From Myxococcales bacterium (GTDB lineage Bacteria; Myxococcota_A; UBA9042; GCA-2863065): 38,057 bases of DNA. How positions within the stretch are numbered: the stretch's first letter is position 1; each line of letters begins with the position of its first letter. Shown in pieces: positions 22,594-26,100 of the stretch. The stretch spans positions 1 to 38,057 of the forward strand of contig JADMJS010000239.1 of assembly GCA_018780435.1 (NCBI GenBank), written 5' to 3'. The notes under the pieces were generated by a model. The model searched no databases. It saw only the letters and a program-made list of their open reading frames with translations, and was not told where the DNA came from. The position numbers and the translations under genes were made by a program.

Positions 22594-23154
22594 TCAGCCT
22601 GCGGAGAGCTGAAGGGGCGGGCGGTGCAAACCCCAGAAGTCGATGTCTGCTGACTCCAGGTTATCCTCGAATGCGTCCCAACCGCTGCGCTTCACGAACT
22701 CGGCCTCACTCCCATGGAGGGGAATCATCCATACGAACACCGTAGGCGGGGAGGTACCGTGGAACGTAGCGAACTCGCCCGGGAAGAACACCGGCATCGC
22801 TGCGTATAGGGCGTTCATCTGGACGCCCGCCATGAGGGGAGAACTTGGCCCGACAACGTCCCCCCTCAGAAGGGCACGGTCCTGAGCAGCGATGTACTCG
22901 CCGAAGGTCATGAGGAGGCTGGCGATGTTCGCTGGGTCATGTCGCTCGTGGGCCGAGAGGAGGAGTTCCTGGCGCACTTTACGGCCGTTGGGCATCGGTA
23001 GCGCTTGCCGACTCAGCCCCAGGGTCACGTACGTCACGACGTTGGGCTCCGGCTGGCCACGGAAGCGAACGACCTTGATCGGGGAACCACCTCCCGAGCC
23101 GCCCTCGATCACACCCAGGTACTTCTCCAGATGGGCAACAAGAGGCGTTGTCAT
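22594..23154 (-). CDS. SUFU-like (Imm-SUFU family) putative immunity protein for the upstream RHS nuclease.
   Basis: The ATG at 23154 overlaps the RHS stop (ATGA). VVTYVTLGLS, ELLLSAHE, PLMAGVQMNALYAAMPVFFP and VFVWMIPLHGSEAEFVKRSGWDAFEDNL match the suppressor-of-fused domain pattern used by polymorphic-toxin immunity proteins. An alternative GTG start lies at 23196. Confidence 0.5.
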   Translation of the reverse strand: MTTPLVAHLEKYLGVIEGGSGGGSPIKVVRFRGQPEPNVVTYVTLGLSRQALPMPNGRKVRQELLLSAHERHDPANIASLLMTFGEYIAAQDRALLRGDVVGPSSPLMAGVQMNALYAAMPVFFPGEFATFHGTSPPTVFVWMIPLHGSEAEFVKRSGWDAFEDNLESADIDFWGLHRPPLQLSAG

Positions 23155-26100
23155 GGGGCCGGATCGCCTCCTCGTGAACGGTTGCAGCCGGGGCACTCCA
23201 ACCGGGTGCCGGTGTTGTAGTCGTCGAGCACCTCCTTCCTCGTCATGTCCGTGTGATCACGCTTGCTCCACGGTGGCTGATGATCCACGTCCCAGTCCCG
23301 ACGGCCCTGCCCCGGGGCAACCTTCACGTCCTTGCCACACGTCGGACAGGCCTTGGTGCCCGCTTGCGACCCTGAAGCGGCATCGTCCCAGGCGTTCTGA
23401 ACGGTGTGCTTTCGGAAGCCACTGGGCCTCTTGGCTACGTTAGCTGCTCCCTTTGAGGCCAGATCATCGGCTGTCGCCAAAGATTGGCCAACACTCATCG
23501 TCTCATCGAGTGCGACCAAGTGTGTAGCGGCGGTGATGGCCACCTCAGCCGCGCCGCTTTCAAACTTGGCGATACCCGTCGAAATCTGGCGGTTGGAACG
23601 CTGGGATGACTCGGCGCGCGACGTCCAATCAGGTGCGAAGCCGCCTTCGGCCGCCGTATTTACAGCCCCTTGAACAGCCTGTGCTCCGCCCTCGTACATT
23701 TTTTTCGCGCCGTCTACGATCGGCCCATAAGTTACTCCCCAGATTGCCTTGCCAACCACCTGTGTCGCCGTGCTGAATCCGGCTACATATGCCTCACCTA
23801 TATCCTTGGCCGTTGGGGGCAGGTGATCGCCGCCATGATCTGTCAGAGACCGACCATCCGGATCCCAAAGCAGAGTCGGAGCCCCACCCACATAAGCAAA
23901 CGGCAACTGCTCCATGGGCGCCGCCCATGAGAGCGGATCGGACGAAAGCCAGCGAGCAATCTCCGGCGAGTACCAACGCGCCCCATGGTCGGTCCAAAGC
24001 GTGTTGGGATCGACGGGCTTGTTCAGCCAGCCATAAGGCTCATCCCCACCTGGCCCCTCTGTCGCCAGCAAGGGGCCATAAGGCTCATAGATCCGCTCTT
24101 CGAGCAGCGACGCATCCGCTCCCGTGACCAGCACGGGCCCGGCGGACACGCCTTTGTTCAGATAGCGAACTTCCACGGGCCCCGCCGTGGAGGGCACCTC
24201 GTCCGGCAAGTCGATCCGAGCGACGGGACGGTCCCCGACCTGGAGATAGAGCTGAAGCTCCCCCTCCACCGGGCGGTGCAGCAGACTGGGCCCAAAACGC
24301 CGCTCGGTGAGGACATCATCCTCCCACGACGCGATCCGCTCACCATCGGCGCCATACTGATACGAGAGCGGGTCCAGCCCCGTCCGCACCACACTCCGAA
24401 TGCGGTCATCGGCATCGAAGCGCTGATCCCAATCGGCGTAGGAGGTGGTGCGCCCCGCGTCGTCGTAGCCGAGCGTGAGCCCCGCCGCGCTGACGAGCCG
24501 CCGAGGGTGCGCCGTCCCGCCATACGTATAGGTGCCGAGCCGCGCGACGAGCCCCGACACGCTCGTGCTCGCCGTGCGCGATGTCAGGTTCTGTAAGGCA
24601 TCGTAACTATACGTGAAGGTGAGGGGTGATGGCCCGCTGCCGAGCGCCGCACCGACGAGTCGGCCCGCCGGGTCGTAGGCGTAGCGGGCGGTCTGGTCGA
24701 GGCCCGTGCTCGAAGCAAAGTCGGTGACGTCGACCGGGGCGCCGATTCCGTCGTAGCGCACGCCGAGGTCGAGTCGCACGGCGGGTGGGGGCAGGTCCCA
24801 GAGGGCGGCTTCGAGGTCGGCAGCTGCACCCGGGCTCGCGCCGGCCCCGACGACGGGGGTGAGCGCCATGGCGTCGCCGACGCGCACGCGCGTCACGAGC
24901 CCGAGGGCGTCCCGCTCGTAGGCCGTACCCGCGCCGCTGCCGAGCTGTTCCCCCCGCAAAGCACCGTTCTCGTCGTAGCCCGTCGCGGCCCAGAGGAGGA
25001 CCGGGTCTTCGTCGAGGCCCGGCCGTTGGACGTCCACGCGGAGAAGCCGGGTCGCCGCGTCGAAGCTCTGCGACAGTGCCAGGCGGTCCGTGTCGTCGTC
25101 GGCAAGCGTCGAGGCGAGCACGAGACCCGACGGCGAGAAGGTCGACTCCGTCGAGAGCGTTTTGCCGAGAAGGTCCCGCGTCGAGCGAAACTGCCGGCCG
25201 TCGGGCCCGAAGGACCAGCAGGTCGTCTCGAGCCGTTCGGTTGGCGTGCCCGACTCGACGAGGTCGAGTGTGACGCCGAGGAGTCGTCCGAGGCCGCCGC
25301 CCTCGCCGGCCGAGCAGCCCGAGAGCGGCGTGTCGTAACGAAAGGTCGAGAGCTCTTCGAGGGTGGCGGACAGGAGGCGCCGCGAGGTCAGGCGAGCAGC
25401 GCTGTCGTAGCCGTACTCGATACGGTCGGACTCGCCGTTCTCGGAGGCGACGAGGCGCCGGTCGTCGTCCCAGGTCCAGAGGCGGACACCCGAGTCCGGG
25501 TCGCTCGCGCGGCGGAGCCGGCCCAGGCTGTCGGTCACAAAGGTCCGGACGACGCGGCCCTCTTGCAGATCTTCGGTCAGGATGGCGCCGGCGGCGTCGT
25601 AGACGGTCTCTTGGACCTCCGTCTCCTCCGGGGCGCCGGTGACGAGCCGCGTGGCCCGAATGGCGCGCCCGAGGCCGTCGGACTCGACCGTGCTCACCGC
25701 GCCGCTCATCGCGACGGGCGCGCCCGTGGGGCCCTGGTAGGTCCAGGTCTGGCCGGTGGAGACCGTGAAGCGGCCGATGGACGCGATTTGAGTGACGCCG
25801 TCCGGGAGGCTGGGCGTCGGGGGCAGGTGATGTTCAATGACGCGGCGCTGGGCGTCGTAGACCAGCCTTTGTGACGGATGTCCCTCGGGGGGAGCCGGCG
25901 CGGCCGCCTCTCGCGGGTCGACGTTGGTCGCGTAGGGGCTGACGAGACGCGTCGTGAGGCCGAGGCGGTTGCGCTCTCGGTAGCCGCTCACGAGCCAGGG
26001 GCCGGCCGTGGTCCCCGTCGTCCCGGTGAAGGTCACTGTGTAGCGCGGCTCGCCGAGCCCGTTCACGGCGGTGACCGAGAGGCCGTCGTCGGCCGCGCCG

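Follow-up and report, generated by a model that had tools for sequence, protein, structure and literature searches.

A GH-E nuclease and SuFu gene cassette on a TcB-TcC-type scaffold in a myxobacterial contig: a probable polymorphic toxin with a candidate TcA-like partner

Introduction

Nucleases of the Tox-GH-E family and immunity proteins of the Imm-SuFu family have been described among polymorphic toxins (Zhang et al., 2011, 2012), the two being already paired in the later study, and a subset of GH-E domains has retained treble-clef cysteines (CxxC...CxxC; Zhang et al., PMC3113570). Toxic tips are also carried by the Rhs toxins of Escherichia coli and Dickeya and by those linked to type VI secretion (the T6SS; Rhs1, RhsA and TseI), which have a YD/RHS shell, a core with two aspartates that ends in DPxG, a variable toxin that is poorer in G+C, and a downstream immunity gene. 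Tc complexes such as TcdB2-TccC3 and YenB/YenC, with TcdA1/YenA, combine an SpvB domain, a beta-propeller, TcdB_midN and an RHS cocoon with a cargo of ~24 kDa, and natural fusions of the B and C components are known (PMC7861908). In this study we analysed the complete 38,057-bp contig (JADMJS010000239.1; the window) of a metagenome-assembled genome (MAG) from a 'Myxococcales bacterium', in which a large minus-strand gene, here termed BC, codes for a protein resembling a TcB-TcC fusion with a GH-E nuclease at its C-terminal tip; it is followed by a SuFu-family gene and preceded by a giant gene, here termed A-like.

With the described Tox-GH-E/Imm-SuFu cassettes the locus shares the toxin and immunity families, their order, their tight coupling and the treble-clef cysteines; however, the GH-E delivery list of Zhang et al. 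(2012), which has the type II (MafB), type V, type VI and type VII secretion systems and Photorhabdus virulence cassettes, is without the TcdB/TcaC route (SpvB plus propeller) seen here. All of the Rhs toxin features given above are present, but there is no PAAR- or VgrG-binding N-terminus, no T6SS gene and no array of orphan tips and immunity genes, the N-terminal half is TcB-like, and the cleavage motif reads WDPDG(R/K) in place of DPxGL. The Tc features are likewise found, together with a candidate upstream partner that has a predicted long channel hairpin and TcB-binding-like domain, with the TcA C-terminal motif. The differences from Tc complexes are that the cargo is a nuclease with its own immunity gene (Song et al. 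found none in the Tc loci that they examined), that BC starts with a Sec signal and its A-like partner is a lipoprotein, that VRP1, neuraminidase-like, TcA_TcB_BD and TcdB_midC domains gave no Pfam match, and that the cargo has an isoelectric point (pI) of 6.3, against at least 8 for Photorhabdus Tc cargoes. We consider it likely that this region encodes hypervariable polymorphic-toxin cargo, with a mobile GH-E/SuFu cassette on a TcB-TcC shell that is probably delivered through the A-like partner.

Results and discussion

The BC protein and its predicted cleavage core

The minus-strand open frame at 23151..29564 has 2137 codons. Its true start is the GTG at 29327, giving a protein of 2058 amino acids (23151..29327) that is identical to a database protein, and this GTG overlaps the stop codon of the A-like gene as GTGA. 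Pfam and NCBIfam searches place along the protein, from the N-terminus, a Sec signal peptide (residues 1-29, with cleavage between ASA and F), an SpvB N-domain (E = 2.9e-16), an FG-GAP beta-propeller (FG-GAP_3, 5e-17), TcdB_toxin_midN (1.6e-13), an RHS/YD shell (RHS_repeat, 4.8e-9; both PF05593 and TIGR01643 were matched), an Rhs-associated core domain and the GH-E tip. Since the solved structures nearest in sequence are TcdB2-TccC3 (1.6e-23), YenB (1e-20) and TcdB1, with E-values ranging from 1e-17 to 1e-23, we assign the scaffold as a TcB-TcC-type fusion. An initial annotation of this DNA had called it simply an RHS protein, which is correct for the shell but incomplete for the whole.

The Rhs-associated core domain comprises 81 residues (23853..24095, minus strand). 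Its match to TIGR03696 (E = 3.2e-11) ends at WDPDG, which lies at nucleotides 23853-23867, and the domain contains two aspartate motifs, LSSDP (D1797) and WDPDG (D1822). In Rhs and TcC proteins the autoprotease signature consists of two DPxG-type motifs, with the aspartate of the second being catalytic (PMC8636562). LSSDP and WDPDG match this signature, and by analogy the core would act as an aspartyl autoprotease plug that cleaves its own chain.

The toxin tip

The tip beyond WDPDG is 233 residues long and is made up of a linker of 137 residues (23442..23852, minus strand) and a nuclease domain of 96 residues (23154..23441, minus strand). The initial annotation had allowed about 330 residues, an interval that takes in 99 residues of the Rhs core. 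The linker, delimited by model confidence, the onset of homology and composition, is rich in alanine and glycine, has a pI of 5.0 and has hardly any homologues; Pfam-type searches found no Pyocin_S or other inner-membrane-translocation domain in it. An AlphaFold2 model of the tip, built from 39 sequences, gave a predicted local distance difference test score below 50 for residues 1-120 and above 90 only in the last ~90 residues, so that the linker is predicted to be disordered.

It can be seen from the domain searches that the proposal of a C-terminal HNH-type nuclease was well founded. The tip scores 59.2 bits on the Pfam GH-E model (PF14410), for which the cutoff is 25 (E = 6.5e-16), and the match covers positions 2-67 of the 68 in the profile. 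PF01844, the classical HNH model, was rejected as the family of the tip, its E-value being only 0.15. The motif blocks CPTCGK (23331-23348), DVDHQPP (23271-23291) and YNTGTRLECPGCNRS (23175-23219) stand exactly where they had been reported, although the spacers between them are 13 and 17 residues and not 18 and 22. The zinc ligands, which would stabilise the fold, are C1994, C1997, C2045 and C2048, and the catalytic-type residues are D2013, D2015, H2016, N2038 and N2049. The four cysteines, D2015-H2016, N2038 and N2049 occupy invariant or near-invariant columns of the GH-E family, and the D-x-D-H, N and C-N-R elements are all intact, from which the domain looks active. The best fold matches of the tip model are HNH nucleases (HNH/EndoVII fold), consistent with a beta-beta-alpha-metal (His-Me finger) fold; there is no solved GH-E structure, and comparison of the tip sequence with the PDB gave no useful match. 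Judged by its sequence, we take the tip to be a genuine nuclease toxin of the GH-E family accompanied by a SuFu immunity gene, a known pairing on a new carrier.

The tip has a mass of 24.4 kDa and a pI of 6.3, which places it inside the 20-35 kDa window for cargo of the Tc cocoon (PMC6868009). As the nuclease domain alone (10.5 kDa) is too small for this range, the disordered linker may serve as a spacer. In 36 members of the family the tips that follow WDPDG are mostly 180-250 residues long (median 223) regardless of the toxin domain, and this uniformity suggests a constraint on cargo size. The same 36 tips are mostly acidic (median pI 6.1), contrary to the charge preference of the Photorhabdus Tc toxins.

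A SuFu-family gene overlaps the toxin stop codon

The initial annotation had overlooked a gene immediately downstream of the toxin. This open reading frame (ORF; 22594..23154, minus strand) encodes a SuFu-family protein of 186 amino acids (PF05076, E = 7.7e-23) that has no signal peptide; its ATG overlaps the stop codon of the toxin as ATGA, and GGAGG is found 10 nucleotides upstream. A search of the PDB with its sequence gave no significant match. The protein is 42-54% identical to SuFu proteins encoded directly after GH-E domains in B. pseudomallei, Sorangium, a metagenomic CdiA and a Polyangiaceae genome. When gene contexts were looked up, SuFu directly followed GH-E in all three: an orphan by a transposase or CdiB in B. 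pseudomallei, an orphan array in Sorangium, and the metagenomic CdiA. In these three the toxin is 74-77% identical to the one described here and the immunity protein 42-51%.

The linkage was also seen in a scan of 27 genome loci, with one genome taken per species. In every one of them a SuFu homologue starts 3-45 nucleotides downstream of the GH-E match, and the loci span Proteobacteria, Myxococcota, Actinobacteria, Firmicutes, Planctomycetota and Hydrogenedentota. On this evidence from gene order and similarity, the SuFu protein is probably the cognate immunity protein and would neutralise the nuclease.

Tips differ between relatives and the nuclease is shared between scaffolds

A search of 5.8 billion proteins for homologues of the shell gave a nearest relative that is 39% identical, followed by the 35 further motif-bearing relatives (32-35% identical) whose tips were compared, from Kofleriaceae, Hyalangium and other Myxococcota. 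In all 36, the last 100-300 residues of the core align up to WDPDG (E = 1e-17 to 1e-56), and none of the tips is related to the GH-E tip, the best tip-to-tip E-value being 0.33. Per bin of 20 residues, identity is 0.32-0.60 across the final 100 residues of the core and does not exceed 0.16 just beyond the motif, so that the fall to background comes exactly after the motif, as the initial annotation had proposed that an alignment of relatives might show. The 36 tips include DUF4157 and calpain domains, and AHH and others occur in more distant relatives. Among 105 relatives, PF14410 is present in this protein only.

The nuclease, in contrast to the shell, has close relatives elsewhere. Its similarity to other GH-E toxins begins sharply at KRPSGFRK and covers the last ~96 residues, where identity is 70-79% with domains carried by CdiA/DUF637, Rhs, PT-HINT and orphan proteins of Burkholderia, Ralstonia, Paraburkholderia, Pseudomonas, Sorangium and others. 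Clear similarity to the SpvB/propeller half was found upstream in none of the 27 loci, with one weak match (20% identity) in a single locus. The GH-E/SuFu cassette is poorer in G+C than its flanks in 23 of these 27 other genomes. It is richer only where the host flanks have a G+C content of 56% or less, as if it hovered at an intermediate value and never fully ameliorated.

Because the tips of the relatives are unrelated, the nuclease is 70-79% identical on other scaffolds and SuFu always travels with it, modular acquisition of the nuclease and immunity cassette is, by sequence comparison, well supported. The initial annotation had spoken of displacement of the toxin tip, and cassette exchange of this kind is supported. 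Strict displacement, which would leave orphan tips behind, is not: tblastn searches in which the core end, the tip, SuFu and the 36 other tips served as queries found no orphan core end, tip or SuFu elsewhere in the contig, in agreement with the earlier statement that orphan tips were lacking downstream.

Base composition of the tip

The G+C content of the tip is 0.614, against 0.714 for the body of the gene. The lower value reported before is thus real, but the stretch singled out for it (23650-23760, 56.8% G+C) corresponds to tip residues 31-68 and lies inside the linker rather than the HNH module. The difference is not due to amino-acid content. At third codon positions (GC3) the tip has 0.654, compared with 0.883-0.889 for the body (Fisher p = 2e-18), and none of 498 windows of 233 codons from other genes, the upstream A-like gene being left out, is as low. 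When the gene is divided further, GC3 is 0.900 for residues 1-1745 of BC, 0.654 for the 81-residue Rhs core domain, 0.584 (the lowest value) for the 137-residue linker and 0.760 for the 96-residue nuclease; the SuFu gene has 0.758. A compositional fall in the tip is therefore seen as had been claimed, but it does not begin at DPxG, since the core domain is already low.

Grafting of the cassette by recombination would explain both the lower GC3 and the unrelated tips of all the relatives. A different explanation is that the tip is old and vertically inherited, and that its GC3 is low because codon selection is weak, or sequence change rapid, at the 3' end of so large a gene. This would fit with the gradual fall of GC3 across the last ~500 codons, with the low value of the conserved and native core end, with the presence of low-GC3 stretches elsewhere in the contig (the A-like gene reaches 0.52), and with the lack of orphan tips, transposases or integrases near the locus. 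It is hard to square with an identity of 70-79% for the nuclease across phyla when that of the shell to anything else does not exceed 39%, with different tips in 36 of 36 relatives, and with the same cassette having less G+C than its host in 23 of 27 genomes. We regard vertical inheritance as highly improbable, and the suggestion that this might be the ancestral cassette conflicts with the composition and the cross-phylum similarity alike.

The upstream A-like partner

The gene upstream of BC (29324..37024, minus strand) encodes a protein of 2566 amino acids and is translationally coupled to BC through the GTGA overlap. The protein is a lipoprotein (LLASGC) with cysteine-rich ends, and gave no Pfam, NCBIfam or PDB sequence match. 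In two other loci a homologous large gene stands ahead of a BC fusion, and an exhaustive search of representatives put the family at 470 or more clusters at 50% identity. The conserved region is C-terminal in most of the members listed, which are proteins of ~1700-1900 residues; the copy in the window differs from most of these by an extra cysteine-rich extension of ~450 residues past the TcB-binding-like domain.

A structural model of residues 1500-2150 has a helix of 84 residues, a hydrophobic loop and a helix of 100 residues, followed by a confidently predicted beta domain. The helical hairpin with its hydrophobic tip corresponds to residues ~1572-1766 (31727-32311), and the beta domain includes the TcA C-terminal motif at residues 2051-2106 (30707-30874). 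When the profile of the A-like family was aligned by hhalign with two canonical TcAs, the same motif was recovered both times, with weak E-values of 0.04 and 0.13; it reads ELAGRGLYGxYxLxFP...DVLxRFDYxSV in the A-like family and LPFEGAGxxGxWxLxLP...SDVILHxRYT in TcA, where it forms the extreme C-terminus of TcdA1, XptA2 and YenA2. A profile search of the PDB gave only weak matches to ClyA-family pore formers (MakA, an Nhe component and XaxA; E = 0.012-1.2), which we read as similarity between helical hairpins and not as membership of that family. With moderate confidence, we read the operon as coding for a diverged toxin of the ABC/Tc-like type that has a nuclease as its cargo and comes with an immunity gene.

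It could be argued that BC is instead an ordinary Rhs effector that leaves the cell by the T6SS, or by Sec secretion with surface display, and that the giant lipoprotein is an unrelated adhesin with no Tc-like injection involved. The Sec signal of BC and the cysteine-rich-repeat lipoprotein upstream are both foreign to canonical Tc subunits, no TcA domain is recognised by Pfam, the closest BC relative is encoded without an A-like gene directly upstream, and SpvB plus propeller has been counted as an export determinant in its own right (Zhang et al., 2012), all of which would be in keeping with such an effector. Domain searches found no PAAR, VgrG or other T6SS gene in the 38-kb contig, however; the partner gene is coupled to BC and two other loci keep it upstream of a BC fusion, and the TcA C-terminal motif was recovered with two independent TcAs. 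We consider the ordinary effector unlikely and favour the Tc-like assignment.

Two further observations concern these genes. In codons ~1200-1800 of the A-like gene (~31600-33400, minus strand) GC3 is down to 0.52, compared with 0.72-0.78 at the ends of the gene, and the stretch, which extends into the channel-like hairpin, is perhaps a further module that has been exchanged. A Kofleriaceae MAG (GCA_035489015.1, locus L009, 1-22965) has four tandem BC-fusion genes of ~2000 amino acids each, with small genes after at least two of them, which looks like an arsenal of whole toxins rather than of orphan tips.

A model for processing and delivery

If the solved structures of Rhs and TcB-TcC proteins are taken as a guide, the aspartyl protease plug (D1797 and D1822) would cut after WDPDG, and the freed tip of 24 kDa would be kept unfolded within the shell until it is expelled. 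Delivery would probably be by the A-like lipoprotein, with its long, putatively pore-forming hairpin and its TcB-binding-like domain, after which the tip may refold in the cytoplasm of the target and degrade nucleic acid, most likely DNA. The cytoplasmic SuFu protein would protect the producer and its kin by neutralising the nuclease. The nuclease and immunity pair appears to move among unrelated scaffolds and phyla, and would have been recombined here onto a myxobacterial shell.

A number of observations count against this interpretation. TcdB_toxin_midC (PF12255) has no match in BC or its 41 closest relatives, though it is present in more distant, canonical ones. Pfam at E of 10 or less found no TcA domain, either in the A-like region of the protein described here or in four full-length family members, and the TcA assignment rests on a predicted fold and a short motif with hhalign E-values of 0.04 and 0.13. 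Only three of five BC loci, counting the window, have an A-like gene directly upstream, and that of the closest BC relative (L006) does not. The pI of the tip breaks the rule for translocation by Photorhabdus Tc toxins, which requires a cargo pI of at least 8 (PMC6868009). The compositional break lies ~80 residues or more upstream of WDPDG and not at the motif, and GC3 declines gradually from around residue 1500, with a single-breakpoint fit that is broad. The low-GC3 core end, which belongs to the best-conserved stretch of the BC family, is 37-46% identical to its own family and 25-30% to the cores of GH-E-bearing proteobacterial Rhs proteins. There is no close orthologue (the best is 39% identical), for which reason the exchange can be neither dated nor directly seen.

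The possibility that the core end was imported together with the nuclease from proteobacterial Rhs genes was rejected, as it is closer to its own family; any donor of this segment was probably another member of the BC family.

Candidate targets

CdiA and T6SS-type Rhs toxins are interbacterial weapons. The same GH-E/SuFu clade is carried by CdiA and by Rhs proteins, and small, tightly coupled genes follow BC in four of the five other cases in which the downstream neighbour could be seen, as in interbacterial polymorphic toxins; bacterial targets are favoured for these two reasons. The immunity gene points in the same direction, such genes being missing from the canonical Tc loci examined by Song et al. 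The targets might nevertheless be eukaryotic (protists, nematodes or insects), with SuFu guarding the producer only against nuclease that folds before export. Every characterised Tc toxin acts on cells of eukaryotes (PMC7861908), any cell would be killed by an HNH DNase, and the immunity protein resides in the cytoplasm, where the toxin is synthesised before it is exported by Sec. We hold this to be a possible, if less probable, account than one in which bacteria are the targets.

We tentatively suggest, as a possibility we do not rate highly, that the three coupled genes represent an unrecognised branch of Tc/ABC toxins that is widespread in Myxococcota, carries cargo of an interbacterial type and is used on bacterial prey or competitors and not on animal cells. 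A bacteria-directed Tc branch, if it exists, would contradict the view that Tc loci lack immunity genes and hit eukaryotes only. It would widen the biology of Tc toxins and offer a new translocation chassis with other rules for cargo, which is acidic here.

The tip itself is a textbook case of a polymorphic toxin, to which the TcB-TcC fusion adds one more scaffold among the carriers of GH-E/SuFu, and the locus illustrates how a 96-residue nuclease passes, together with its antidote, from one delivery system or phylum to another. The context may be of more use: a large, unannotated TcA-like family paired with myxobacterial BC fusions whose cargoes have immunity-like genes.

Neighbouring genes of the contig

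Downstream of SuFu there are 530 nucleotides without a convincing gene, followed by the gene for a Tat-signal superoxide dismutase. Between the two, at ~22060-22330 on the plus strand, is a protein-like open frame of ~95 codons (…DPILATSLETRYAAEVERRAYLDSDVEAIALWQQGDH…) without a start codon in range; it was examined as a possible remnant and Pfam gave no match, and it may be what is left of a gene.

A standalone calpain-family (Peptidase_C2) protein is encoded at 14627-16216 (plus strand) and shares 31% identity (E = 1e-15) with the calpain tip found on one BC-family member (P0036); it could share a common origin with that toxin tip or be an unrelated protease. The ORF of 232 amino acids at 13834-14532 (plus strand) has a weak match to the TIR domain (E = 2.8e-4, under the gathering score), with a low G+C content (0.59) and a normal GC3 (0.82). 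At 1777-6955 (plus strand) a right-handed beta-helix protein is encoded between two CotH kinase-like genes (E = 4e-31 and 1.9e-53). Secreted or envelope proteins are also found among the neighbours, namely a fibrinogen-like GGGWT-domain protein (19922-21280, plus strand), the Tat-signal Fe/Mn superoxide dismutase (21284-22063, minus strand) and a ceramidase-like protein (10390-13536, plus strand).

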